Assembly (NCBI GenBank): GCA_024654525.1
Contig: JANLHI010000002.1
Location: 16,496 to 80,495 of the forward strand
Source: Patescibacteria group bacterium
GTDB taxonomy: Bacteria; Patescibacteriota; Minisyncoccia; UBA6257; 2-01-FULL-56-20
Length of the DNA: 64,000 bases
Direction: 5' to 3'
This document shows, one piece after another, positions 1,150 to 57,244 of the stretch. Numbering within the stretch: position 1 is the stretch's first letter; every line of letters begins with the position of its first letter. A model generated the notes under the pieces. The model made no database searches and was not told where the DNA came from. It worked only from the letters and a program-made list of their open reading frames with translations. The position numbers and the translations under genes are program-made.

Positions 1150-1531
1150 GAGGGTATATTTTTCCTGTCATTATAATTGATTCTCTGGGGATTGACACTC
1201 TTTATTTTCTCTATATAATCAAGTCTTGCTATGGGTTCGGTCTGACAGCTCTCCATAGAGTAGTAATGCTATGGGGGGTGGTTCTTGAATCATGGCACAT
1301 GACTGATGCTTGAAAAATTCCTTGCTGGTTCGTGATCTGGAACATGCACGGCAATATAAGAATAAAAAAGAGTTTTTTAGTTGTTCCAATACGGTTTTGG
1401 TAGTTCCGTAAAAACTACATGTATTTCCGGTTTGGATTTTCACCTCGGTGGAATCCGAACTTTTTTTCGAGGATTTGATCCTGGTCCAGGATGAACGCTG
1501 GCGGCGTGGATAAGGCATGCAAGTCGAACGG

Positions 1532-1975
1532 TCAGATATCGGACCTCGGACGTCAGATTTCGGATGGTATACTGGAATAATGGATGTTACCGAATTGAGG
1601 ATATATGGAGATGCAATGAAGTTATTGCCGCAAGTATACACACTCGCAAAACAGCTTCCTAAAAGCGAGTTTGAACTCCGTTCTCAACTCTGTAATTCTG
1701 CAAAAGCTATTTCTGCTCAAATCGCAGAGGGATTCGCAAAAAAGGATTCGCAGGTTGAATTCAAGCGATTCTTGTTAATGGCACTCGGTTCTTCCGATGA
1801 GACAATCACGCATTTAAGACAAATTCAAATCTTAAAATTTGAAGGTGTTGATCTTAAATTGTGTGGGTCTTTAGTCGAAGAATATCAATCCGAGTCAAAA
1901 CAGATCAATTCATTAATTCAGAAGATAAAAAACAATTCGAAATCTGGTATCTGATGTCTGAAGTCCGATATCTGA
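1532..1975 (+). other. Intervening sequence (IVS) inserted in the 16S 5' domain, closed by a long inverted-repeat stem
   Basis: TCAGATATCGGAC at 1532 pairs with GTCCGATATCTGA at 1963. Canonical 16S sequence (GGCGAACGAGTTAGTAACAC) resumes immediately after. Confidence 0.75.
1580..1954 (+). CDS. rRNA intervening-sequence protein (four-helix-bundle family, TIGR02436 / S23-IVP-like)
   Basis: ELRSQLCNSAKAISAQIAEGFAKKD and FLLMALGSSDETITHL match the IVS-protein consensus (SQLrRAaxSIxaNIAEG ... FLxIAxGSxxE). The ORF lies entirely inside the IVS. The track ORF starts at 1517, but the internal ATG at 1580 is more likely. Confidence 0.65.
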   Translation: MDVTELRIYGDAMKLLPQVYTLAKQLPKSEFELRSQLCNSAKAISAQIAEGFAKKDSQVEFKRFLLMALGSSDETITHLRQIQILKFEGVDLKLCGSLVEEYQSESKQINSLIQKIKNNSKSGI

Positions 1976-2815
1976 CAGTGGCGAACGAGTTAGTAACACC
2001 CTAGTACGTACCCCGAAGTCGGACATAGCTCATCGAAAGGTGAGGTAATTTCCGATAGTCCCAGCTTTCGCTTTTCGTTTCACGAAAAGCTATAGCGGGC
2101 AAGTCGCAAAACTTGCCTGTCCGTAGCTCACGTGGAACGCAGAGCGAAGGCTGGGTAAAGTCGCAAGACGCTTTGGGATCGGCTTAGGTCCGATCAGCTA
2201 GTTGGTGGGGTAATGGCCTACCAAGGCGATGACCGGTAGGGGAGGTGAGAGCCTGGCCCCCAACGACGGAACTGAGACACGGTCCGTACTCCTACGGGAG
2301 GCAGCAGTCGAGAATATTCGACAATGGGCGAAAGCCTGATCGAGCGACGCCGCGTGCAGGATGAAGGGCTTCGGTCTGTAAACTGCGGTAGTATGGCAAC
2401 AACGCAAGTGAGTGCCATATGGAAAGAGGTGGGTAACTACGTGCCAGCACCAGCGGTAATACGTAGACCTCAAGCGTTATCCGGATTTATTGGGCGTAAA
2501 GAGCATGTAGGAGGCGCGGTGCGTCTTTGGTTAAATCCCACTGCCTAACGGTGGAAATGCCAGAGATACGGCCGTGCTAGAGGAGGTTAGAGGTGCATGG
2601 AACTCACGGTGTAGGGGTGAAATCCGTTGATATCGTGGGGAACACCAAAGGCGAAGGCAGTGCACTGGGACCTTCCTGACTCTGAGATGCGAAAGCGTGG
2701 GGAGCAAAAAGGATTAGATACCCTTGTAGTCCACGCCCTAAACGATGCCTGCTTGCTGTTTCGAGTATCGACCCTCGGAGTGGCGTAGCTAACGCGTTAA
2801 GCAGGCCGCCTGGGA

Positions 2816-2847
<32 letters not shown>

Positions 2848-2975
2848 AGACGGGGACTCGCACAAGCGGTGGAACATGAGGTTTAATTCGACGATAAGCG
2901 AGAAACCTTACCAGGGCTTGAAATGTTTGTTGAAAGTCTGTGGAAACACGGACCCTCCCTTAAAAAGACAGCAAG

Positions 2976-3007
<32 letters not shown>

Positions 3008-3090
3008 CTTTGAAGTGTTCCCTTAAGTGGGGTAACGAGCGCAACCCCTATCGTGTGTTATATGTGTCACACGAAACTGCCCCCGCTAAA

Positions 3091-3165
3091 GTTCAGATGT
3101 TGGAAATCAGATATCAGATGTCGGATGAAATTCCGAAATCTGATATCCGAAATCTGATATCCGAT
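3091..3165 (+). other. Roughly 75-nt expansion hairpin inserted in the loop of 16S helix 40
   Basis: CCCCGCTAAA and TTTAGCGGGG flank the insert. The insert is built of ATCAGATATCAGAT and CCGAAATCTGATATC repeats. Confidence 0.6.
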
Positions 3166-3687
3166 TTTTAGCGGGGGAGGAAGGAGGGGACGACGTCAAA
3201 TCCGCATGGCCCTCTGATGCCCTGGGCCACACTCGTGTTACAATGAAGCCGACAATGCGTTGCGAACCCGTAAGGGGGAGCTAATCGTATCAAACGGTTT
3301 CTCAGTTCGGATTGAGGGCTGCAACTCGCCCTCATGAAGCTGGAATCGCTAGTAATCGCGGATCAGAACGCCGCGGTGAATACGTTCTCGAGTCCTGTAC
3401 TCACCGCCCGTCACGCCAAGGGAGCCGGGAATGGGTAAAGCCTCGCAAGGGGTTAACTCAAATTCGGTGACATGGGCGAAGTCGTAACAAGGCACGCGTA
3501 GCGGAAGCTGTGCGTGGAACAATTAAACTATACGTCGTAATTTTTAGATTTTAGGTGATAGGTGTTGGATGAAATATTCTAAAACCTAAAACCTTCAACC
3601 TAAAACTTATTTGATTGGAACAACTAAAAAGCTTTTATACTCCAGTGTCCGATATCAAATGTCGGGAAATGTGGTATACTTTTTTAC

Positions 3688-4080
3688 ATGGCTGATTTGC
3701 AAAACACTATTATGGTCATCGAGGATGACCCGTTTCTTTCCTCTATATTAAAGGCTCGATTTGAAAAAGATGGGTTTCAAGTGATTCAAGCATTTAATGG
3801 AGAGGAGGCGCTTGCAAAGCTTCGTGAGTCGACGCCTGGAATTGTTATTTTGGATCTCATTATGCCGAAGATGTCGGGATTTGAGGTGCTTCAAGCAATT
3901 TCCCTTGACCCTCAGTTGAATAAGATTCCTGTGGTAGTGGTTTCAAACCTCGGACAACCGGGCGATATGGAAAAAGCAAAAGGGTTTGGTGCGATAGATT
4001 ATTTTGTTAAAATGAGGATGTCGATTGATGAATTGATTGTAAAAATTCGAGATATTGTGACAAAAAACGGGATGAAGTAG
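3688..4080 (+). CDS. Stand-alone response-regulator receiver (CheY-like) protein
   Basis: IMVIEDD is followed by ILDLIMPKMSGFEV and a conserved Lys region. There is no output domain. Confidence 0.8.
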   Translation: MADLQNTIMVIEDDPFLSSILKARFEKDGFQVIQAFNGEEALAKLRESTPGIVILDLIMPKMSGFEVLQAISLDPQLNKIPVVVVSNLGQPGDMEKAKGFGAIDYFVKMRMSIDELIVKIRDIVTKNGMK

Positions 4081-4153
4081 GTTAAAGGCGGAAAATAAAA
4101 CTGATAGCAAAGAGACTTGCGAGTTATTCAATAATAAGTTATACATTACTCCC

Positions 4154-4453
4154 ATGGATGCAGAAACAATAAAGAAAATAAAACCGGGCGCGCGTGTTCG
4201 CGTTTTCGAGGAAAAAGGCTATTTTGAAGGCCTTGTAATCGCGCGAAAGCATGGTTCGGAAGTGGGATCGACATTTACCGTGCGCACGATTATTGCGGGC
4301 GTAGGTGTGGAAAAGGTATATCCTATTCATTCTCCTGCAATTGCAAAGATCAATATCATTTCTTCTCCGAAGAAAGTGCATACCTCAAAAATCTATTGGG
4401 TAAGAAAAGCATCGGGAGCGAAGATTAGGCAGCGGTTGGGAGTATCTCTATAG
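4154..4453 (+). CDS. rplS: 50S ribosomal protein L19
   Basis: FEGLVIARKHGSEVGSTFTVRTIIAGVGVEKVYPIHSPAI matches the L19 consensus. Confidence 0.85.
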   Translation: MDAETIKKIKPGARVRVFEEKGYFEGLVIARKHGSEVGSTFTVRTIIAGVGVEKVYPIHSPAIAKINIISSPKKVHTSKIYWVRKASGAKIRQRLGVSL

Positions 4454-11954: not shown

Positions 11955-13268
11955 TTGAACCAAAAAGGATTTGCAAACATAGTAATGCTTATTGTCGCAG
12001 CCCTCGCTATCGCCGGAGTAGGCGGTTATTTCGTTTTGAATCGGCAGGCGCCATTACCGGAACCTACGCCGACACCAACACCGAATCCAATTGAAAATCC
12101 TAGTCCGACCCCAACTCCTATTCAAATTCCCAAACAGCCTGCTCAATTCCAAAATCCTAAAAATATTCCGCAAGCTCATAATACTTTCGGATTTAATTCC
12201 ATCAAGATACTTGTCAAAGAAGAAGGAAATAAAAATGTTTTTATTTCGCCTTCCAGCATCGCTTTGGCGCTGTCTATGGTCTATAACGGCGCAAATGGAG
12301 AGACAAAAAATGCCATGCAGAAAACTTTACAATTTCAAAATTTGGACATCGCTACTGTCAATCAAGAAAGTTTAGGACTTATCAACAGCTTAAAAAATCC
12401 TGATCCGAAAGTAGAACTTTCGGTGGTAAATTCAGTATGGGCAAGAAATGGTGTAGATTTTAAGAAAGATTTTCTAAGTGCGGTTGGAAGTTATTTTAAC
12501 GCCGAGATTTCAACTCTTGATTTTTCCAACTCAAATGCGGCAAACACAATAAACGCTTGGGTTGATAAAAATACTAAAGGAAAAATACCCACCATAGTAA
12601 CTCCTCCTATTCCGTCAGATATGGTGATGTATCTTATCAACGCGGTTTATTTTAAGGGAAGCTGGACTACTGAATTTGATAAGAAATTAACAGAAGACAG
12701 AAATTTTACTACTGCTGATGGTGTTTCTAAAAAACATCCGCTTATGCGACAGTATGGTGATTTGCCATATCTTGAAATGGAGGATTTCCAAAGCGTGAAT
12801 CTTCCATATGGTACAAACAAGCGATTAAGTATGTATGTATTTTTGCCAAAAAATCTCAATAGTTTTGTTCAAACTTTGGATACGAATAAATGGAATGATT
12901 GGATGAAACAATATAAAGAAACAGAAGGCACTATATTGCTTCCGAGATTTAAAATGGAATACGAAAAGGGATTGATACCGATGCTGACACAGCTAGGTAT
13001 GGGAGTTGCATTTCAAGATAACGCTGACTTGACTGGCATTGGTGATAGTCTAAAAATCAGCGAGGTCAAACATAAAACCTATGTTGATGTAAATGAAGAA
13101 GGGACGGAAGCCGCCGCGGTAACAAATGTGGGTGTAGGCACTACATCAGTTATGCCGGCGCAAAAAACATTCTACATGGAAGTCAACCGTCCTTTCTTCT
13201 TTGTGATTAGAGACAATCAAACCCAAGAGGTATTGTTCATGGGAACAATACAAAATCCTTCTAAATAG
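11955..13268 (+). CDS. Serpin (serine protease inhibitor) with an N-terminal membrane anchor and a Pro/Thr-rich linker
   Basis: FISPSSIALALSMVYNGANGETK, NAVYFKGSWTTEFD, the hinge/reactive-centre loop EEGTEAAAVTNVGVGTTSVMP and the C-terminal FFFVIRDNQTQEVLFMGTIQNP are all serpin motifs. Confidence 0.85.
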   Translation: MNQKGFANIVMLIVAALAIAGVGGYFVLNRQAPLPEPTPTPTPNPIENPSPTPTPIQIPKQPAQFQNPKNIPQAHNTFGFNSIKILVKEEGNKNVFISPSSIALALSMVYNGANGETKNAMQKTLQFQNLDIATVNQESLGLINSLKNPDPKVELSVVNSVWARNGVDFKKDFLSAVGSYFNAEISTLDFSNSNAANTINAWVDKNTKGKIPTIVTPPIPSDMVMYLINAVYFKGSWTTEFDKKLTEDRNFTTADGVSKKHPLMRQYGDLPYLEMEDFQSVNLPYGTNKRLSMYVFLPKNLNSFVQTLDTNKWNDWMKQYKETEGTILLPRFKMEYEKGLIPMLTQLGMGVAFQDNADLTGIGDSLKISEVKHKTYVDVNEEGTEAAAVTNVGVGTTSVMPAQKTFYMEVNRPFFFVIRDNQTQEVLFMGTIQNPSK

Positions 13269-13430
13269 GAATAACCGCCCATTTTTTTGAAAGAAACAGA
13301 AGCGAATCCCGCCCGCTTGCGTGGCTAAAGCCACTTCAGCGAGGCGCTGGCGGGCTTTCTCGGAGCGTGCGACTTAGTTTCGCTTCACCACGCGCTCCGC
13401 GCGTGGTAGCTTGAATTATATAATAGCAAC

Positions 13431-14765
13431 ATGTTCAATTCACTTGTTTTTTATCTTGCAATTTATATCGGTTTACTCTTTCTACTCTCTTGGTTTGTTT
13501 CTAGAAAACAACAGGAGGAAGATTTTCTCATTGCGGGAAGAAATAGGAGTGGCTGGCAAATTCTCCTCTCCAAGTTCGCCGCTTCAATCGGTGCGGGTTA
13601 TTTCATAACTTATACAGGTTTCGCATACGAATACGGTGTCGGGGTTTTTGCTATGCTCGCTGGTCTTATCGCCGGTTTTTTATTCTTTGCGTATTGGGCT
13701 GCACCAAGAATTGCGGCTGGTTCACGAGAAGGAAAATTTTATACAATCGGGCATTTTGTGTATAGCAAATTCCAAAATAACAAAGCACGCTTTCTCGCCG
13801 ATATCTTTTCCAGCGCAATCTTGTTTAGTTGGTTATTAGTTGGGATTATTGGTAGTGGAAAAGTTATTGCCGATTTCGGTTTGCTTTCATACAACCTCGC
13901 CGTTGTTGCAACAAGCTTAGTGGTGCTTTGTTATTTACTGCTCGCCGGATATCGTGCGGTTCTTCTGACTGATATAGTGCAATCTGCCGTCATTTTTATT
14001 TTGATGATTGTGGTTACTTTTGGCATAATTGGTACTTCTCGCTTTGGAGAGTTACATTCTTTTTCTACGGCTAATCTTGATATTGGTGTTGCAATAGGGT
14101 TTTTCCTATTTGGCATTTTGAGCGTATTTTCTTACTCGGATCGATATCAACTTTCATATGCCGCCAAGAGCGAAAGAGGGTTAAAACACGGGCTCGGATT
14201 ATCTATCGTTCCAATTATTCTCATCGCGTATTTCCTGCTTCTGATAGGTGTGTTCATGGCTACCAAAGTTTCTGGTTTGGATTCGGGGCTTGTGTTCACG
14301 GAGGCGCTAAAGCAATTTCTCAATCCATCGTTAGTGCCGCTTGCCGTAGTGCTGTTTTTTGCGGGCATAATGAGTTCAGCCGATACTGATATTTACGCGA
14401 TTTCTTCTCACTATGCATTGTCAAAAACAAATAACACTAACTATATTAAAGATGTCCGGAGAGCGATGATTGGTTTAACGATTATTGTCACAATCCTCGC
14501 AATAACATTTCCTGATGTGGTGAAAGCTTCTATTGTTGCCGGAGCAGCATCGCTCCTGCTGTCATGGGCAATGATATATGTAATATCTGGCGGAAAAAAT
14601 CCAAATAGATTTATCGGATCGATTGTTACCTCAACAATAGGATTGGCACTTGCTATCATGTATTTTGGATTAGAACCAACGGTAGCGATTGCCATAGTAG
14701 TATTTGGTCCATTGGGACTACTGTACAAGGGACGCAAAAATAAATCAGAACTTATCGTAAGTTAG
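13431..14765 (+). CDS. Sodium:solute symporter family (SSF) transporter
   Basis: The protein is multi-TM. An N-terminal AGRNRSGW motif and the overall organisation fit SSF/PutP-PanF-like transporters. Confidence 0.65.
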   Translation: MFNSLVFYLAIYIGLLFLLSWFVSRKQQEEDFLIAGRNRSGWQILLSKFAASIGAGYFITYTGFAYEYGVGVFAMLAGLIAGFLFFAYWAAPRIAAGSREGKFYTIGHFVYSKFQNNKARFLADIFSSAILFSWLLVGIIGSGKVIADFGLLSYNLAVVATSLVVLCYLLLAGYRAVLLTDIVQSAVIFILMIVVTFGIIGTSRFGELHSFSTANLDIGVAIGFFLFGILSVFSYSDRYQLSYAAKSERGLKHGLGLSIVPIILIAYFLLLIGVFMATKVSGLDSGLVFTEALKQFLNPSLVPLAVVLFFAGIMSSADTDIYAISSHYALSKTNNTNYIKDVRRAMIGLTIIVTILAITFPDVVKASIVAGAASLLLSWAMIYVISGGKNPNRFIGSIVTSTIGLALAIMYFGLEPTVAIAIVVFGPLGLLYKGRKNKSELIVS

Positions 14766-20081: not shown

Positions 20082-20567
20082 ATGGCTACTCGGCACCTTG
20101 TAAGAACAGTGATTCTCCAGTCCCTTTATGAATGGGATTTTTATCATAAAGAGAAGGATATTATTGCGATTCTTGAGAGAAATCTCCAAGAATTCGCGTC
20201 GGGCATAGACGAGCCCGATTTTGCGTGGAGAATTTTAAAAGGTCTCGTGGAGCATTTGCGCGAGATAGACGAAATAATTGTGCGTGTTGCGCCAGAATGG
20301 CCTCTTGATAAAGTTGCCATAATTGACAGGAATATTCTTCGAATAGGGCTTTACGAATTGATGTACGCGAATCCCGAAGAAGTACCTCCCAAAGTCGCTA
20401 TTAATGAAGCGATTGAAGTTGCAAAAAATTACGGCGGTCCAAGCTCTGCGCGATTTGTAAACGGCGTATTGGGTACGGTCTATCGCGAGGTGCAAGCGAA
20501 GCGCGGTGATGTGGTTTCCGAAGTACCTGTCGCGCCGAAACGTAAGAAACGGAAAGATGCAAAATAG
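20082..20567 (+). CDS. nusB: Transcription antitermination factor NusB
   Basis: [26 protein letters not shown] and [19 protein letters not shown] match NusB. Confidence 0.85.
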
Positions 20568-21252
20568 TCCCGATACACAAGCTCTCGAAACAGCAATTGG
20601 CGTTCCAATCGGGAACGTTGATTTATACTACGCGGCGCTCACGCATCGTTCCTATTTAAATGAAGAACCTCATTGGCCTCATGGGCATAACGAACGGCTG
20701 GAGTATCTTGGAGATGCGGTGTTGGAGCTTGTGGTGAGCGAGGATCTCTATTTAAAATTTCCCGATGATCCGGAAGGGAAACTTACACTTCTTCGCGCGG
20801 CGCTCGTAAACTACCAATTTCTTGCACGCGTGGCGGAAGATATCAATCTTAACAGCTTTCTCCTTATGTCGCGTGGTGAAAACAGAGATGTAGGAAAGGC
20901 GCGCGAAGTTATTTTGGCGAACGCGATGGAAGCGCTTATCGGCGCAATTTATCTTGACCAAGGGCTTGGTGAAGCAAAAAAATTCATTGATCGTTTCGTC
21001 ATGGTAAGTCTTGGTGAGATTGTGAGAAATGGAAGTTATAAAGATGCGAAAAGTGAGCTTCAAGAACTGATTCAAGAAAAGAAAAAAGTAACTCCTTCAT
21101 ATCGGGTACTTGATGAAAACGGCCCTGCGCATAAAAGAACATTCCGAATAGGAGTGTATTTTGGTGAAGATCTTATTGCCGAAGGAGAAGGACTGTCAAA
21201 GCAAGAGGGAGAGGTTGAAGCGGCGCGAAAAGCGTTAGAGAAGGTGAGATAG
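20557..21252 (+). CDS. rnc: Ribonuclease III
   Basis: [20 protein letters not shown] is the RNase III signature. A C-terminal dsRBD is present. The start was adjusted to the ATG that overlaps the nusB stop. Confidence 0.9.
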
Positions 21253-24603: not shown

Positions 24604-25746
24604 ATGAAATCACTAGATATCGGCCAGTTAAAAGATCAAAAAGAAGGCTTTAAAGCTTTCGTTCCCAACCCTTTTCCTCCAAAGGGCGGTTTTGAGTTTG
24701 ACCCGAAAATTCTGAAGAAAAGCGACGAGGCGACGCGCCTCTTGGGTAAACTCGACGGTATCACCAAACTCCTTCCCGATGTCGATTTTTTCTTGAGTAT
24801 GTACCTGCGCAAGGACGCCGCATCATCAAGTCAAATCGAAGGGACGATGGCCACGATGATTGACGCCATCGAAGCCGAAGTCCAAGCAAGCGCGAATATT
24901 CCGGAAGATGTTGATGACATTCTGCATTACATCAAGGCGCTGAACTACGGGATGAAGCGCGTACAGCAAGACGACTTTCCGATGGCTCTCCGTTTTGTAA
25001 GAGAGTTACATAAGCAATTGATGGACAAGGCTCGAACGACTCATTATTCCGACCCAGGAGAATTCAGAAAATCACAGAACTGGATTGGTGGTACTCGTCC
25101 TGACAATGCACGCTTCGTGCCTCCCCCTGTCGAAGAAATGCATGTTGCCTTGAATGATCTTGAGAAATTTATGCATTCGAGTGATGACATTCTCACGATC
25201 ATCAAAGCGGCGCTTATACACGCGCAATTCGAAACGATTCACCCATTTCTCGATGGTAACGGTAGAACCGGTCGTATGCTCATAACGTTCTATCTTTGGA
25301 AAGAAGGTTATCTGGAGAAACCGGCATTGTTCCTGTCCTCCTACTTCAAGAAGCATCAAAAAGTCTATTACGAAAGACTGTTCGGCTATCACTTTGGAAG
25401 TGTTTCCGATTGGGTAGATTTCTTTCTTGATGGTGTCATTGAGATCGCCGGTGAGGCAATCGACATTGTCGGAAAGATCACGACACTTCGTGAAAAAGAC
25501 ATGCTCAAAGTACAGACTCTCGGCAAACGCTCGTCAGAGAGCGCGGCTTTGGTATTGCCAAAACTTTACGAACAGCCGATCGTCAACGTTGCGACGGTTC
25601 AAAAATGGACCGGTTTTTCCCGAGTTGGCTCCCAGTCGGTGATCAATCGATTTATCGAGATGGGTATCCTTACTCCCAAGGATAAGGATAAGAAATACGG
25701 GCAATCGTATATCTATAAAAAATACATAGATATATTTGCTGAATAA
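24604..25746 (+). CDS. Fic-family protein (AMPylator-type)
   Basis: Canonical Fic motif HPFLDGNGRTGR. The protein is 380 aa with a C-terminal winged-helix-like region. Confidence 0.85.
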   Translation: MKSLDIGQLKDQKEGFKAFVPNPFPPKGGFEFDPKILKKSDEATRLLGKLDGITKLLPDVDFFLSMYLRKDAASSSQIEGTMATMIDAIEAEVQASANIPEDVDDILHYIKALNYGMKRVQQDDFPMALRFVRELHKQLMDKARTTHYSDPGEFRKSQNWIGGTRPDNARFVPPPVEEMHVALNDLEKFMHSSDDILTIIKAALIHAQFETIHPFLDGNGRTGRMLITFYLWKEGYLEKPALFLSSYFKKHQKVYYERLFGYHFGSVSDWVDFFLDGVIEIAGEAIDIVGKITTLREKDMLKVQTLGKRSSESAALVLPKLYEQPIVNVATVQKWTGFSRVGSQSVINRFIEMGILTPKDKDKKYGQSYIYKKYIDIFAE

Positions 25747-26207: not shown

Positions 26208-26260
26208 AATATATGCCAAAGGAAATCGCCAAGAAAACTAAAGAAGAAGTATAATTACAT

Positions 26261-28216
26261 ATGAAAAATATCTTTGAACAATTAGTAGATTTATTAAAAA
26301 AAGATGAGCGCCTTGTTTCGCAAGACGGCGTGCTTTTGAAAAATCAAGTGCAGGAATTGGCTAGGAAAAATGATCCAGCTTTGATTAAGCTTTTACTTTC
26401 CGACAAGGCGATAAAACAGCACTTCTTTTTTGAAGTAGAAAAAACGCTGATTTTTGATAAAGAAAAGTTTATCCGCTTTGTTTCTAATAAACAATTTTTA
26501 CCGGATTCCTATACTGCGTTTAAAAATAAAATCGGCTTAACTGCTGGCGATGAATATGTGAGCGAAAACAAAGAAGTGGTTTTAACTTGGCCTTATAAGG
26601 ATTGTGTTTTGGAAGGCGGAATGACCAAAGAAGACCAAAAGAGGGATGAGATTTTTTATAATGAAACATTAGCGCCGGACGATATCAATCGCCTACTGGA
26701 CGCCAAAGTTTTTACCAATTTCAAACGGATAGACAAAAAAGGCGAACACAAACTGGACGGCTTCAAGCGCGATGAAAAAGGTACGATTAAAGACAATTTG
26801 ATTATTAAAGGCAACAACTTGCTCGCGCTTGCTTCACTTAAAAAAGAATTCGTCGGAAAAGTGAAGCTGATTTACATTGATCCGCCGTATAACACAGGTG
26901 ATGACGGATTTAATTATAACGATACATTCAACCATTCAACATGGATGACCTTCTTAAAAAATCGATTGGAAATAGCTAGAAAAATGCTGACCAAAGATGG
27001 ATCGATTTTTATCCAAATTAATGATATCGAAGAAGCATATCTAAAGGTGTTATGTGATGAGGTTTTTACTCGGGAAAACTTTCATACGAGCATATGCGTG
27101 CAAATGTCTCATTTGAGCGGAGTAAAAATGGCGCACAAAGATAAGAAATTACCTAAAATTAAAGAGTATGTCTTATTTTATACAAACTCACCAAAGATTA
27201 AATTAAACCCACAATATGTTCCAGCTAGTTGGGATGAAGCACTAGAGCGATATTCTTCATTCGTAGTTAAAGAAAATTATACTGATGATGAGTGTGAAAA
27301 ATGGAAGATTATTCCACTAAACAAAGCGATCAAAGATAGTGGCGTTGATATAAAAGACAAAAAGGCAGTAACTGATTTCAAATTAAAAAATGCAGACTTA
27401 ATATTTAGAACTGCAAGAAATAGAGGGGCAGATTATTCAGCATACAATCCTAATTGTTTTAATAAAGTCACCAACCCCGACGAATCATATTATTTTGTTT
27501 ATAAAGGAGAAGATATAAGTTTTGCAGCGGACAAGGTTATTTCTATAAACGGTAAATTGACTCCAGTTGTTGCTTTGGGGGATATTTGGACCGATATCGG
27601 AATAAATAATCTATCAAATGAAGGTGGTGTGGATTTAAGATTTGGAAAAAAACCTGAAAAGTTGATAGAACGAATAATTAAGCTAATATCTAATTCAGAC
27701 GATGATATTATCGTGGATTTTTTTAGTGGATCAGGAACTACCGGTGCTGTTGCTCATAAATTGAAAAAGCGATATATCCTCATTGAGCAATTAGCTGATC
27801 ATATTAATAAATCTATTGCAAGAATTAAGAATGTAATCAAAGGTGAACAAAGTGGGATAAGTAAAGATAATGATTGGAAAGGTGGCGGAGATTTTGTCTA
27901 TATGGAACTTGCTAAATGGAATGAGGAATGGATAGAAAAAATTGAAAAAGCCAAAACCGGCAAAGAACTCGCTAAACTTTGGGATGAGATGAAAGAAACC
28001 GTCTTTTTGAGCTACAAAGTCGATCCGACAAATGTTGATGCAAATGCCAAAGATTTTGCGGAATTATCTATTGCCGATCAAAAGAAATTTTTGATTGAGT
28101 GCTTGGATAAAAATCAGCTTTATGTAAATTTGAGCGAGATTGAGGATAGAGAGTATGGGGTGAGTAAAGAGGATATAAAGTTAAATAAAGAGTTTTATGA
28201 AAAAGATAGCTTTTAA
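26261..28216 (+). CDS. mod: Type III restriction-modification N6-adenine DNA methyltransferase (Mod)
   Basis: Motif IV (IYIDPPYNTG) precedes motif I (VDFFSGSGTTGAVA), which is beta-class order. The 651-aa length is typical for Mod. Confidence 0.85.
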   Translation: MKNIFEQLVDLLKKDERLVSQDGVLLKNQVQELARKNDPALIKLLLSDKAIKQHFFFEVEKTLIFDKEKFIRFVSNKQFLPDSYTAFKNKIGLTAGDEYVSENKEVVLTWPYKDCVLEGGMTKEDQKRDEIFYNETLAPDDINRLLDAKVFTNFKRIDKKGEHKLDGFKRDEKGTIKDNLIIKGNNLLALASLKKEFVGKVKLIYIDPPYNTGDDGFNYNDTFNHSTWMTFLKNRLEIARKMLTKDGSIFIQINDIEEAYLKVLCDEVFTRENFHTSICVQMSHLSGVKMAHKDKKLPKIKEYVLFYTNSPKIKLNPQYVPASWDEALERYSSFVVKENYTDDECEKWKIIPLNKAIKDSGVDIKDKKAVTDFKLKNADLIFRTARNRGADYSAYNPNCFNKVTNPDESYYFVYKGEDISFAADKVISINGKLTPVVALGDIWTDIGINNLSNEGGVDLRFGKKPEKLIERIIKLISNSDDDIIVDFFSGSGTTGAVAHKLKKRYILIEQLADHINKSIARIKNVIKGEQSGISKDNDWKGGGDFVYMELAKWNEEWIEKIEKAKTGKELAKLWDEMKETVFLSYKVDPTNVDANAKDFAELSIADQKKFLIECLDKNQLYVNLSEIEDREYGVSKEDIKLNKEFYEKDSF

Positions 28217-29095: not shown

Positions 29096-31780
29096 ATGCT
29101 TTACGACGAATTTAACTCATATAAAAACTTTGCCGGCGCTGATGTTTTCAAAAACAAAGCGACAGAAAAATCAGATGTTTTGAAAAATCTCAATCCGGCT
29201 TTTCCGGCGCGCGAATATCAGAAGGAAGCACTGGGGCGGTTTTATTATTATTGTGAGGAATATCACCAAAAACAAAAGCCAATTCATTTGATGTTCAATA
29301 TGGCGACTGGTTCGGGGAAAACGCTCATAATGGCGGCGAATATTTTGTATTTATACCAAAAGGGCTACCGTAATTTTATTTTTTTTACTCGTTTGGGTAA
29401 CATTATTCAAAAAACCAAAGCAAATTTTCTTGATCTAAGTTCTAAAAAATATTTGTTTGCCGACAAAATCACTCTTGGCGGACAGGAAATAAAAATCAAA
29501 GAAGTTGATAATTTTGAAGGTGTAAATGATGATGATATCAATATTATTTTCTCTACCACCGCGCTTTTACACTCTCGTTTCAATTTTGCTCGCGAAAATG
29601 TTTTAACTTACGAAGATTTTGCGGAAAAGAAAATTGTTTTGATTGCTGATGAAGCGCACAACCTATCTGTGGAAACAAATAGCAAGATAAGCAAAACCGA
29701 AGAAGAAGACCGCCGAAACTGGGAAAATACAGTAATGCGGATTTTGAACGCCAACAGCCAAAAGGATAATGTGCTTTTGGAGTTTACGGCAACGGCTCGA
29801 TTAGAACAGGAATATCCTGAGATTTTGGAAAAATACAAAGACAAAGCGATTTATCGTTATGATCTGAAAGAATATCGCTTGGACGGGTTTTCAAAAGATG
29901 TGCGAACTTTGCAGATAAACGCGCCGATTATGGAACGAGCTCTTTCGGCGGTGATTATTTCGCAATATCGCCGTAAGGTGGCAGAAAAGTATAAAATCGC
30001 ACTAAAGCCAGTGGTTATGTTTAAGGCCAACAGAGTAAGTATTCCCAAAGAAGGAATATCCAAGGAACATAATCCGCAAATTGTCGTTTCAAACATTTTC
30101 AAAGACTCTTTTCATAAACTTATTTCTGAACTAGACGAAAAACACCTAAAACAGCAAACAGCAATAAAAAACGCAACATTGCAAAAAGCATTTCAATTTT
30201 TCAATGAGCAAAAAATTACTCTTGTGGATTTAGCGGCAGAAATGAAAAGCGATTTTGCACCGGAAAAATGCTTGACGGTTGATGAAGATAAAGATTTAGA
30301 GCAAAAACAAATTTTACTTAATTCACTAGAAGATCAAAACAATGAAATCCGCGCTATTTTTGCGACAGAAAAATTGAATGAAGGTTGGGATGTTTTGAAT
30401 CTTTTTGATATTGTCCGGATTTACAACAGTCGTGACGAAAAAGGCAATAAACCGGGAAAAACAACTGTGCAAGAGGCGCAACTTATCGGGCGAGGCGCAA
30501 GGTATTATCCTTTTACTCTTGGTGAATTTACTGACCCATATAGAAGAAAATTCGATACTGATATACAAAATGAATTACGGATATTGGAACAACTTTATTA
30601 TCATAGCGTAACGAATTCTAAGTACATTTCTTTACTAGAAGGAGTTTTGGTTCGTGAAGGTATTATGCCATCACGCACAGTGCAAAAAGAGATTAAAATT
30701 AGAAGCGATTTTAAAAACAGCGATTTTTGGAAGAAAGGCTATATTTTCTTAAATTCTCGCAAGGAAAATTTAGGAAAAGATGTTTTTACTCTCTCGGACG
30801 CCAAAGCAGAATTCGACCATAACGCTGAAATAAACATCTTTCAACTACCAACGCGAGAAGCGATAGAAAAAGATTTGTTTGTTGCTGGTGCTGGCGCCGG
30901 AGTAAAGGCAAAAATTAAAATCCGAGATTTTAGAATTGCTGATTTCGGAACACATATTGTCCGCATCGCTTTGGCAAAAATATCATGCGGACAGTTTTGT
31001 GAACTTAAAAAGATTTTCGGTAACATAGAATCCGCAAAAGATTTTATTTCAAATGAAAAATATCTTGGAGGCATAAAAATTAAGGTGAAAGGTACAAACG
31101 AGCAAGTAGAAAATCTTTTGCAGATTGAAAAGTTGAATATTACCGGATTTGTGATTGATAAAGTATTGGAAGTCGCCGGCAAAGAGAAAAAGGAATACTA
31201 CGGAACAAAGGAGTTTAAAGCTCACCTGATCCAAAAAATATTTGAAAATGACAAGGTGTTGCAATTAGATAGCGAAAGTCCGCGAGCGCAAAATATGCGA
31301 GATTTTGATTTTTCTTCTCGGGATTGGTTTGCTCAAAACGAAATCTGGGGAACGAGCGAGGAGGAATCATTTTTGCGTTTTATTGATGAGGCAATAACAA
31401 AGCTAAAAAAGAAATATCAAGATGTTGCACTATTTCGTAATGAGCAGTTTTTCAGAATCTACGGCTTTGAAAACGGTGAGCCGTTTTATCCCGATTTCGT
31501 TTTGTTTTTGACGGAAAAGAAAACAAAGCAAGAAGTTATGTATCAGATTTTTGTTGAGCCAAAGGGCAATCAATTTTTGGATGCACAAAATACTTTTGAG
31601 CATTCAAAAGAGGGTTGGAAGCAAAAACTATTGGTTGAGATAGAAAAAAGTCATATTGTTGAGTTGAGGATAGAAAGTAAGGATTTTCGTTTGGTTGGTT
31701 TGCCTTTCTTTAACGAGGGACAGGTGAATAGTGCCTTGCGTGAAAAGTTTGAAGAGGTGTTTGAAAAAAAATTATTATAA
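29096..31780 (+). CDS. res: Type III restriction endonuclease (Res) subunit
   Basis: A REYQ motif, Walker A MATGSGKT and DEAH box IADEAHN are present. The C-terminal nuclease-like segment reads PDFVLFL...IFVEPKG (PD-(D/E)xK). Confidence 0.85.
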   Translation: MLYDEFNSYKNFAGADVFKNKATEKSDVLKNLNPAFPAREYQKEALGRFYYYCEEYHQKQKPIHLMFNMATGSGKTLIMAANILYLYQKGYRNFIFFTRLGNIIQKTKANFLDLSSKKYLFADKITLGGQEIKIKEVDNFEGVNDDDINIIFSTTALLHSRFNFARENVLTYEDFAEKKIVLIADEAHNLSVETNSKISKTEEEDRRNWENTVMRILNANSQKDNVLLEFTATARLEQEYPEILEKYKDKAIYRYDLKEYRLDGFSKDVRTLQINAPIMERALSAVIISQYRRKVAEKYKIALKPVVMFKANRVSIPKEGISKEHNPQIVVSNIFKDSFHKLISELDEKHLKQQTAIKNATLQKAFQFFNEQKITLVDLAAEMKSDFAPEKCLTVDEDKDLEQKQILLNSLEDQNNEIRAIFATEKLNEGWDVLNLFDIVRIYNSRDEKGNKPGKTTVQEAQLIGRGARYYPFTLGEFTDPYRRKFDTDIQNELRILEQLYYHSVTNSKYISLLEGVLVREGIMPSRTVQKEIKIRSDFKNSDFWKKGYIFLNSRKENLGKDVFTLSDAKAEFDHNAEINIFQLPTREAIEKDLFVAGAGAGVKAKIKIRDFRIADFGTHIVRIALAKISCGQFCELKKIFGNIESAKDFISNEKYLGGIKIKVKGTNEQVENLLQIEKLNITGFVIDKVLEVAGKEKKEYYGTKEFKAHLIQKIFENDKVLQLDSESPRAQNMRDFDFSSRDWFAQNEIWGTSEEESFLRFIDEAITKLKKKYQDVALFRNEQFFRIYGFENGEPFYPDFVLFLTEKKTKQEVMYQIFVEPKGNQFLDAQNTFEHSKEGWKQKLLVEIEKSHIVELRIESKDFRLVGLPFFNEGQVNSALREKFEEVFEKKLL

Positions 31781-54939: not shown

Positions 54940-55443
54940 ATGCACATGGAGGAATATGCAAGCGAGGCAGTGGTACTCCGTCGAGAACCACAGGGAGAGG
55001 CCGACAGTCGCATTTCTTTTTTTACAAAGAAATACGGAAAACTTGTCGCAAAAGCACGAAGTGCCAGAAAAATTACCTCAAAGCTTTCAGCGCATCTTGA
55101 ACCGGGAATGGTATCCGAAATACGCCTTGTCGAAAAAAACGGCATGCTCATTGTGGATGCATTAAAGCGCAAAAAACTTTCGCTTGCTCCCGCAACATTG
55201 TATTTTCTCGATCGCATACTTGCAGAGGCGGATCCCGATATGGATTTGTGGCAGATGCTTCAAAGCGATAGTTTTTCATGGCACAGTGTTCTGGGGCTTC
55301 TTGGATGGGATCCTAAGAGTGCGGTATGCGGTTCGTGCGCGGCGCTTCCTTCTTCATTTCACATAGGAAGACAGGATTTTCTTTGTGTGTCGTGTTCGCG
55401 ATATGAACCACAGAAAAATTTAATTGTATTAAACAAGGTATAA
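54940..55443 (+). CDS. recO: DNA repair protein RecO, short form
   Basis: An N-terminal OB-fold (EAVVLRREPQGEADSRISFFTKKYGKLVAKARSARK) and a C-terminal CxxC...CxxC zinc finger. Only 167 aa. Confidence 0.65.
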   Translation: MHMEEYASEAVVLRREPQGEADSRISFFTKKYGKLVAKARSARKITSKLSAHLEPGMVSEIRLVEKNGMLIVDALKRKKLSLAPATLYFLDRILAEADPDMDLWQMLQSDSFSWHSVLGLLGWDPKSAVCGSCAALPSSFHIGRQDFLCVSCSRYEPQKNLIVLNKV

Positions 55444-55453
55444 TAATCTTATT

Positions 55454-57244
55454 ATGACGACTACAACTCCGTGGGAGGAGGATAGCAATACTCTTGCAGT
55501 TTCGGAACCACCTCGCCACTCAAAAGTCTTAAAGGTGGTCGTTGTCACGATTTTTCTTATGATTGCGGGAGGAGGAATATATGCATATTTTCTTTCGCAA
55601 CGTCCGACGGGTGTCAATGTGTCCGTCGAATTTGTGACGCCACCACAAACGCTTTTAGGGGAATCCTTTCCCTTGATACTTTCCGCAGCAAATCACTCGG
55701 ATAGCGTATTGCATGATGCAAAGCTTTCGATATTACTCCCCGAGGACGTTTATTTTGTGGGAGAATACAGCGGAGAACGTATTCATGACGAGGTATTGGG
55801 TACAATCGGCCCGGGGAGCGTAACACAACGTGTAGTGAATATAGTGATATTGGGGCAAGCCCAATCAATACGACTCATTGAGGGGAAACTTGCATATAAA
55901 ACATCTGATGACGGAAGAGTGCAGTTTGAACAGGGAGCGCGGGCAAATGTGCAAGTGAGCGATCCTGCGTTGCAACTTTCATTTGAAACTCCAAAACAAG
56001 TGGTAAACGGGGAAACATTTACTACCAAAATCCATTACAAGAACGAAAGTAAGCAGGAGTTCAATAACGTAAAGCTCGTGTTTCGTTCACCTTCCATCTT
56101 TTCTTTCCAGCGTGCTACGCTTGAAGTTTCTGCACGTACGAATGACGTTTGGAATCTCGGCACCTTAAAGGGCGGGAGTGAAGGGGATTTGGAAATTGAC
56201 GGGAAAATAGTAAGTCTGGAAGGTTCATTTTTCACACTATCCGCGGAAATGAGCGCTGATTTTCTCGGCAAGTCGCGCGAACTCGCGGTGCAAACGGTAT
56301 CACTGGGCATTGCCACTTCACCGCTTTCAATATCAATAGTGGCGAATGATGCTTCGGATTATATTGCGAAGATAGGAAGTAGTTTTTCCTACAGGATGAC
56401 TGTCCGTAACAATTCGGATATCGTATTCCGAGGATTGAAAATAAGTGCGCATCTCATCGGAAATCTTTTCAATTACGGTTCGGTGCGTTCAACGGGGTCA
56501 TTCAACTCTCTTGCAAATACGTTAACGTGGATTACCGCGAATCAGGGAGACCTGGAAAATATTGCTCCGGGAGAAACTCGTGCGGTCAATTTCACTATAT
56601 TACTCAAAGACTCGTTTCCGATAAAAAGCGCGACCGATAAAAATTATGAAGTGAGAGTCGAAGCGCATGTTGAGTCTCCGACGGTACCTCCCGATACTGC
56701 AGCCGACAAAACGATTGCAGTAACCGATGTCACTACAAAAGTTGCGGGGGCGGTAGTGCTTCGCGCTTTGGCGCTTTGGCGCGATGCCGCATGGGGAATT
56801 CTCAATGATGGGCCATATCCTCCTCGTGTAAATCAACCTACTCAATACAGTATTCATTGGAGAATCGCCAATTACGCAACCGATATAGGAGCGGTGCATG
56901 TGGAGGCATTTCTTCAGTCAGGTGCTCGGTTTGTGGGGAATGCAAAAAGCAATGTTGCGACGGTACCGCAGTACGATGTATCAACGGGACTTGTGACATG
57001 GGACATTCCTTCAATTGCCGCAACAAAGGGAGTTGCAAGCGTTCCGGTTGAGGGAGTGTTTCAAATAGAGGCAACTCCGGCAACTACTCATATCGGGCAA
57101 AGCATGGTGCTTATGAAGGATTCTTCGTTAAAGGCAAAAGACTTGTTTACGGGCATTGAGCTTCAAAGCGATGCGGGAGCGGTAGACAGCAATATTCCGG
57201 AAGATGCGACTGTTACCGTAGTTGAGAGAAGAGTGGTGCCGTAA
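55454..57244 (+). CDS. Large membrane-anchored surface protein with repeated beta-sandwich (DUF11/CARDB-like) modules
   Basis: An N-terminal TM anchor is followed by about four Ser/Thr/Val-rich modules of roughly 120 aa each. Confidence 0.45.
   Translation: MTTTTPWEEDSNTLAVSEPPRHSKVLKVVVVTIFLMIAGGGIYAYFLSQRPTGVNVSVEFVTPPQTLLGESFPLILSAANHSDSVLHDAKLSILLPEDVYFVGEYSGERIHDEVLGTIGPGSVTQRVVNIVILGQAQSIRLIEGKLAYKTSDDGRVQFEQGARANVQVSDPALQLSFETPKQVVNGETFTTKIHYKNESKQEFNNVKLVFRSPSIFSFQRATLEVSARTNDVWNLGTLKGGSEGDLEIDGKIVSLEGSFFTLSAEMSADFLGKSRELAVQTVSLGIATSPLSISIVANDASDYIAKIGSSFSYRMTVRNNSDIVFRGLKISAHLIGNLFNYGSVRSTGSFNSLANTLTWITANQGDLENIAPGETRAVNFTILLKDSFPIKSATDKNYEVRVEAHVESPTVPPDTAADKTIAVTDVTTKVAGAVVLRALALWRDAAWGILNDGPYPPRVNQPTQYSIHWRIANYATDIGAVHVEAFLQSGARFVGNAKSNVATVPQYDVSTGLVTWDIPSIAATKGVASVPVEGVFQIEATPATTHIGQSMVLMKDSSLKAKDLFTGIELQSDAGAVDSNIPEDATVTVVERRVVP

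Follow-up and report, generated by a model that had tools for sequence, protein, structure and literature searches.

A probable RNase III-type intervening sequence with an S23p-family gene in helix 6 of the 16S rRNA of a Parcubacteria-group CPR bacterium

The stretch of DNA analysed here (the window; 64,000 nt) carries a 16S rRNA gene that is interrupted three times. The longest of the three insertions holds an ORF and is the subject of this report; the other two are hairpins. The features referred to below all lie on the + strand:
1192..1219, +, consensus sigma-70 promoter TTGACA-16-TATAAT (12/12 matches in a promoter scan)
1463..3529, +, 16S rRNA gene, 2067 nt including the three insertions (Rfam RF00177 and alignment with E. 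coli)
1525..1565, +, 5' arm of the closing stem of the first insertion (predicted fold)
1532..1975, +, intervening sequence (IVS), 444 nt, replacing distal helix 6 (E. coli ~71-100)
1565..1573, +, extended -10-like box TGgTATACT, 6 nt before the ATG at 1580, a putative internal promoter
1580..1954, +, 124-aa ORF, 23S-IVS protein (S23p) family (profile HMMs, predicted fold)
1942..1983, +, 3' arm of the closing stem
2072..2145, +, second insertion, 74 nt, forming a hairpin at the helix 10 tip (Rfam alignment, fold)
3088..3172, +, third insertion, 85 nt, forming a hairpin at the helix 40 tip (arms 3093-3125 and 3132-3164)
20506..21252, +, rnc, RNase III (Ribonuclease_3 and dsrm domains)

The promoter at 1192-1219 lies ~245 nt upstream of the 5' end of the 16S gene and is the probable source of the 16S precursor. 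Downstream of the 16S gene come genes for a response regulator (3688-4080) and ribosomal protein L19 (4154-4453), and there is no 23S gene anywhere in the 64,000-nt window; the rRNA genes are therefore unlinked. The protein genes nearest to the ORF inside the 16S gene are those of a HAD hydrolase and the response regulator. Further genes in the window specify a serpin (11955-13268), a Fic protein (24604-25746) and a type III restriction-modification pair (26261-28216 and 29096-31780).

The 5' flank of the first insertion, GTCGAACGG, ends at 1531, the insert occupies 1532-1975, and the rRNA sequence resumes with CAGT followed by GGCGAACGAG. The first-pass annotation, made from the sequence alone, had the 5' flank and the 444-nt insert right, but the 3' flank that it named begins 4 nt further on. 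From flank to flank the distance is 449 nt in the window gene and 27-47 nt at the same place in other bacteria (fetched loci). Pairwise alignment with E. coli 16S rRNA equates window 1474-1532 with E. coli 12-70 and window 1977-2057 with E. coli 101-181. The SSU alignment that had been proposed as a way of naming the interrupted helix thus points to distal helix 6, in V1 (E. coli ~71-100): as is typical of an IVS, the insert takes the place of the tip of a peripheral rRNA hairpin. Searched with the whole window, the Rfam model reports the 16S gene as 1836-3529, with its 5' end threaded through the ORF. That start, inside the ORF, is an alignment artefact and is corrected by the E. coli alignment and by a search restricted to 1440-2010, in which SSU model positions 1-128 cover 1463-2010.

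A perfect 13-bp inverted repeat, TCAGATATCGGAC (1532-1544) facing GTCCGATATCTGA (1963-1975), closes the insert. This repeat, already described in the first-pass annotation together with an imperfect stem extending it, is the outer part of a predicted stem of 37 pairs. The arms of the stem are built of 7-nt repeats, with 1532-1566 consisting of five units of nTCRGAY and the 3' arm of units of RTCYGAn, and across 38 nt (1528-1565 against 1942-1979) they are 82% complementary. The fold of 1516-1996 has a predicted free energy of -150 kcal/mol (z = -7.1), which was equalled by none of 100 shuffled sequences. When 18 aligned IVSs (see below) are compared, 92% of the cells of the stem are paired and 15 of the 37 pairs show compensatory changes, with many G-U pairs; none of 500 shuffles reaches the observed values, and in slid controls the paired share is just 24-41% of cells. 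The RNAalifold consensus of the aligned IVSs gives the same closing stem and places nothing but short local hairpins, within the ORF, inside it. Because the changes are compensatory and include G-U pairs, selection acts on the RNA duplex and not merely on a DNA inverted repeat: the complementary termini of the insert form a long duplex that is conserved at the RNA level, as those of an IVS should.

The heptad pattern TCRGAYN has 14 matches in the window, against 0.13 expected, and these fall within both arms of the IVS and within the helix 40 hairpin, apart from a single weak site elsewhere. The stop codon of the ORF (TGA, 1952-1954) sits within the 3' arm, so that the variable C-terminal residues of the protein are set by the repeat. 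In one relative (L093) an extra heptad repeat of ~85 nt (1890-1975), forming an additional hairpin, lies between the ORF and the 3' arm, which suggests that the repeat arrays expand. Literature searches on heptad repeats around genes of this protein family returned nothing relevant, although such repeats may nevertheless have been described.

The 124-aa ORF, with the motifs quoted for it in the first-pass annotation, is found at 1580-1954. Its product matches PF05635 (E 7.8e-19; 68.3 bits, cut-off 33.8) and TIGR02436 (E 2.7e-20; 72.6 bits, cut-off 24), the two profiles against which its assignment to the IVS-protein family was to be checked, above their cut-offs. PF05635 is the sole match in a Pfam scan of the ORF, which detects no homing endonuclease or maturase. 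Profile search of the PDB retrieves 2GSC (E 1e-13) and 2RLD (E 3e-4). The proposal that the protein is a four-helix bundle is borne out by an AF2 monomer model (pLDDT 93.4) with helices at residues 7-24, 31-53, 58-85 and 92-121, which Foldseek superposes on solved members of the family, with TM 0.84-0.9 for 2GSC and a match to 2RLD as well. These two proteins, XCC0516 (2GSC) and BT_0352 (2RLD), are homologous to the window protein and agree with its model at TM 0.75-0.9 and an rmsd of 1.4-2.0 Å; their crystal entries hold five chains each, whereas the window protein has been modelled as a monomer. A solved S23p-family protein is a homopentamer (Lin et al. 2006, as cited in PMC4990558). By analogy with these solved relatives the window protein is probably a nucleic-acid-binding homopentamer; its target might, at a guess, be the repeat duplex of its own cassette, or it might take part in rRNA processing.

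The same fold is shared, at 11-13% identity, with the Avd proteins of diversity-generating retroelements (DGRs; 4DWL and 8UB7, TM 0.71-0.83), and the PHROG Avd profile gives a weak match (E 2e-4). Avd binds nucleic acid and reverse transcriptase. In DGRs, however, Avd sits beside a reverse transcriptase gene and its template and variable repeats, whereas the window gene lies inside the 16S gene and is flanked by rRNA, with no reverse transcriptase among the 20 window ORFs scanned; a DGR accessory gene is rejected on this context. An anti-phage defence gene was likewise considered and rejected, the ORF product having no match among the PADLOC defence models.

A protein search yielded 204 relatives, and the top ~57 clusters, all with PF05635, share at least 65% identity with the ORF product. 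Where their contigs are long enough, the close relatives are found at the same 16S site, in CPR bacteria of Parcubacteria type such as Candidatus Jorgensenbacteria. Eighteen distinct helix 6 IVSs (the window and 17 other contigs; 431-533 nt) could be aligned; 17 of them have an intact ORF, while L102 has a frameshift. The proteins are 48-83% identical to that of the window, with 21 invariant residues. Variation affects every one of the 98 aligned third codon positions but 45 second positions; pN is 0.19 and pS 0.78 (saturated), and dN/dS is 0.04-0.09 where dS can be estimated. By these sequence measures strong purifying selection acts on the ORF, which is a working gene. In a conserved stretch, the relatives' 16S genes are about 9-20% different from the window gene (an indicative range, most contigs holding little 16S), and the cassette must thus have been retained for a long time. 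LAGLIDADG or group I insertions often lie further 3' in these 16S genes.

How the ORF might be expressed is suggested by what precedes it. The box TGgTATACT ends 6 nt before the ATG, and in 16 of 17 helix 6 IVSs a hexamer of TATAMT type, usually after TGn, stands 6-8 nt upstream of the ATG; the RNAalifold consensus leaves this hexamer unpaired, and no Shine-Dalgarno (SD) motif precedes the ORF start in helix 6 IVSs. Family members at other genome loci behave similarly. TANNNT lies 5-9 nt before the start in 32 of 42 CPR members but in 2 of 20 non-CPR members, and conversely an SD is present in 3 of the 42 and 10 of the 20. In the CPR members the spacing is most often exactly 6 nt, in 16S, in 23S and outside rRNA alike. 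The 16S rRNA of the host ends ...GGAACAATTAAACT (3505-3529), where other bacteria have GGATCACCTCCTT, and has no CCUCC, i.e., no anti-SD. The anti-SD is also absent from the 16S 3' ends of relatives, which read GGATCAATTAAACT in L001 (~7015) and L010 (~7273) and GGATTAATTAAATT in L005 (~7487). Loss of the anti-SD in a subgroup of the Parcubacteria has already been published (PMC9297842).

Any SD-like 4-mer precedes only 9 of the 53 ORFs of the window, while a TANANT box lies 5-9 nt before the start of 7 of the 53, compared with 2.7% of all ATG triplets, which suggests that this genome makes frequent use of leaderless mRNAs. The arrangement TGGTATACT-N7-ATG at 3688 is an example of the box-to-ATG spacing in another window gene, and TATAAT or TATACT boxes stand 5-9 nt before the ATG of apparently operon-first genes at 3665-3690, 13414-13433, 26245-26263 and 55434-55456. 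Because the spacing is fixed, an SD is absent and the host is devoid of an anti-SD, an internal extended -10 promoter and a leaderless mRNA are the favoured reading of the IVS signals. Such an mRNA would start at the A of the ATG at 1580, driven by TGgTATACT within the cassette, and the sequence signals suggest that the ORF is translated from it; leadered translation from the excised RNA, in a genome that lacks the anti-SD, is a possible alternative. The box has no recognisable -35 element and for that reason was missed by the consensus promoter scan; its identification rests on positional conservation across IVSs and family members. No terminator was found after the ORF, and a transcript from the internal promoter would therefore continue through the remainder of the 16S gene.

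The other two insertions in the 16S gene are hairpins. The one at helix 10, a known site of 16S IVSs, is very stable (-62.5 kcal/mol, z = -10) and has neither a heptad repeat nor an ORF. The one at helix 40 is likewise ORF-less (-57.5 kcal/mol, z = -9.9), and its arms are made of TCRGAYN heptads, as are those of the IVS. A comparable heptad hairpin occupies the helix 40 site in L001, while L005 has a normal 12-nt loop there, and similar ORF-less heptad hairpins occur in or near the 16S genes of L002, L010, L089 and L099. A hairpin of a different repeat unit (four copies of TTTTAGN facing four of CTAAAAC) is found just 3' of the 16S gene at 3543-3606; it may serve the rRNA transcript as a terminator or as a stem for processing.

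The host encodes RNase III, as the first-pass annotation had noted; the gene starts at 20506, however, and the start given for it there (20557) is an internal ATG of the ORF 20506-21252. With the helix-tip site, the long covarying stem, rnc, the HMM matches and the predicted fold all in agreement, the annotation's reading of the insert as an RNase III-type IVS with an IVS protein is supported. We judge it fairly likely, if short of certain, that the insert is such an IVS in helix 6 of the 16S RNA of a Parcubacteria-group CPR bacterium, with a functional S23p-family gene. The cassette would be transcribed within pre-16S RNA from the promoter at 1192-1219, and its arms would zip into a ~37-bp extension of the base of helix 6. 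By analogy with other IVSs, RNase III would cut this long stem, freeing the ORF-bearing loop, and the ends would be left unligated; base pairing would hold a 5' piece of ~70-85 nt to a 3' piece of ~1.5 kb. A 16S RNA split ~70 nt from its 5' end, as proposed here, would be unusual and is not known from the helix 6 site. Fragmented, unligated rRNA is the outcome of 23S IVSs in Coxiella, Leptospira and Salmonella. The window 16S RNA, with its three insertions, probably matures as several pieces.

The RNase III step is inferred from the anatomy of the IVS and from the precedent of the Coxiella 23S IVS, a 428-nt element that has a stem of 28 bp, carries an S23p ORF and is cut in mid-stem by RNase III (PMC4990558). 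The likeness to this element, and to that of Leptospira, is close: the size is nearly identical (428-444 nt), the terminal stem is long, the S23p ORF lies in the loop, and the tip of an rRNA hairpin is replaced (PMC4990558). The differences are of several kinds. The host helix is h45 of 23S rRNA in Coxiella and h6 of 16S rRNA in the window; the window IVS has arms of 7-nt repeats and a -10 box 6 nt before its ATG; and, while the Coxiella ORF is decaying and apparently untranslated (PMC4990558), that of the window is under strong purifying selection. Within 16S rRNA, ORF-less IVSs are on record for Campylobacter, Helicobacter and others, in works cited in PMC5041132; these, too, are insertions at the hairpin tips of variable helices, but they are much shorter and hold no ORF.

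The main competitor of excision is retention: the insert would stay in mature 16S RNA as a long helix 6, with no processing by RNase III and with the ORF expressed from its own promoter only. The stem is coaxial with the base of h6 (the spur of the 30S subunit) and lies at the subunit periphery, and the cassette does seem to own a promoter, so that expression of the ORF needs no excision. Nevertheless, we consider retention unlikely. A nearly perfect 37-bp duplex is a standard substrate of RNase III, which the host has; homologous 23S cassettes are excised where this has been tested (PMC4990558); and, according to Brown et al. 2015 (as cited in PMC9297842), the transcripts of CPR bacteria do not contain their rRNA insertions. 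Removal of the insert by self-splicing, with ligation of the 16S exons, is a much weaker contender. It draws some plausibility from the group I and group II introns that account for many CPR 16S insertions in one survey (PMC11270868), 3 of whose 18 IVS-protein ORFs in 16S are reported, in its Table S3, to lie inside group I introns, and from relatives L005 and L011, in which a group I intron lies further 3' in the very 16S gene that carries the IVS. Yet the covariance models that detect Intron_gpI in those two relatives find no intron, and no other non-SSU RNA family, in 1440-2010 of the window, even at E <= 1. They recognise no group I or group II catalytic core in the insert. Beyond the closing stem, its consensus fold holds only short hairpins inside the ORF. 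A homing endonuclease is absent, and the insert is built like an IVS that takes the place of a hairpin tip. The intron reading is rejected on these grounds as highly improbable.

The ORF might, alternatively, be the unexpressed remnant of a decaying selfish element of which only the RNA stem still matters. That is what the Coxiella ORF looks like, with its signs of reductive evolution and no synthesis of the protein in vivo (PMC4990558), and the frameshifted ORF of L102 hints at the same fate. The selection analysis disposes of this explanation for the window gene, for which it can be given very little credence: dN/dS is low with synonymous sites saturated, the ORF is intact in all but the one lineage, 21 residues are unchanged across otherwise diverged proteins, and the start signals track the type of host, with a -10 box in CPR bacteria and an SD in Firmicutes. 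A mis-joining of a protein gene into a 16S contig has also to be thought of, metagenomic rRNA regions being prone to mis-assembly. However, the arms covary, and the same insert with the same arms at the same site is found in 17 independent contigs, from different samples and assemblers, with divergence like that of orthologues; a chimera is accordingly rejected, its likelihood being next to nil. What is left as the preferred reading is the RNase III-type IVS.

The finding is real, but ORF-bearing inserts of this kind in the 16S genes of CPR bacteria were known already. The novelty that the first-pass annotation implied for this protein family in 16S disappears in the light of a survey of 380 16S and 348 23S genes of CPR bacteria (Tsurumaki et al. 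2024; PMC11270868), which had catalogued it there and in which 16S is the commoner location: as tabulated (Tables S3 and S4), PF05635 (23S_rRNA_IVP) ORFs occur in 18 16S insertions and in 4 23S insertions, and 15 of the 18 lie in insertions that are not introns. The companion statement, that homing endonucleases dominate among CPR 16S insertions, is upheld by the same survey (159 of 177 ORFs in 16S; PMC11270868). Its authors point out that their result agrees with Brown et al. 2015, and they suggest an RNase III-type IVS for some of the CPR insertions. [quoted passage not shown]

The window adds a clean and well-supported example of a protein-coding IVS in 16S rRNA and leaves existing knowledge unchanged. 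Its heptad arms, miniature hairpins, leaderless start signals and purifying selection, none of which was found described in the literature searched, are modest additions, but they could make the role of the S23p/IVS protein testable, the gene being under selection, unlike that of Coxiella. At a practical level, three insertions and a probably fragmented 16S RNA affect primer design, rRNA-based detection and the automatic annotation of rRNA genes.

The family extends beyond rRNA. Among 80 genome loci, PF05635 genes are in 16S in 8 and in 23S in ~27; most of the remaining ~45 have no rRNA nearby, and a few adjoin an rRNA gene without being inside it. Five of the 8 genes in 16S are at helix 6 and three are near E. 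coli 1070-1090. This second 16S site is represented by L022 (1393-1761), L035 (1058-1399) and L038 (578-919), on contigs of Uhrbacteria, Levyibacteriota and Daviesbacteria; in L022 a group II intron domain match lies near the PF05635 insertion. Many of the copies outside rRNA are bracketed by pairing, periodic inverted repeats of CAGA/CGGA type (z from -4 to -14). Host-matched start signals and arms, the latter also on many non-rRNA copies, point to a self-contained cassette that could be tested in vitro. We offer, as a tentative proposal with rather less than even prospects, that the PF05635 gene, its periodic arms and its leaderless promoter constitute an autonomous cassette that colonises highly transcribed DNA of CPR bacteria (the helix tips of 16S and 23S rRNA, and gaps in operons). 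It would be neutralised by excision at the RNA level and would leave behind or spawn ORF-less heptad hairpins such as that at helix 40, with an Avd-like pentamer recognising the repeat duplex for spread or for processing.

Arms of CAGA/CGGA type outside rRNA are seen in L008 and also in L013, L016, L018, L025 and L029. In L008 (Doudnabacteria, GCA_016218585.1) two copies of the gene, at 1474-1833 and 4001-4378, are placed among type IV pilin genes and share the orientation of their neighbours.
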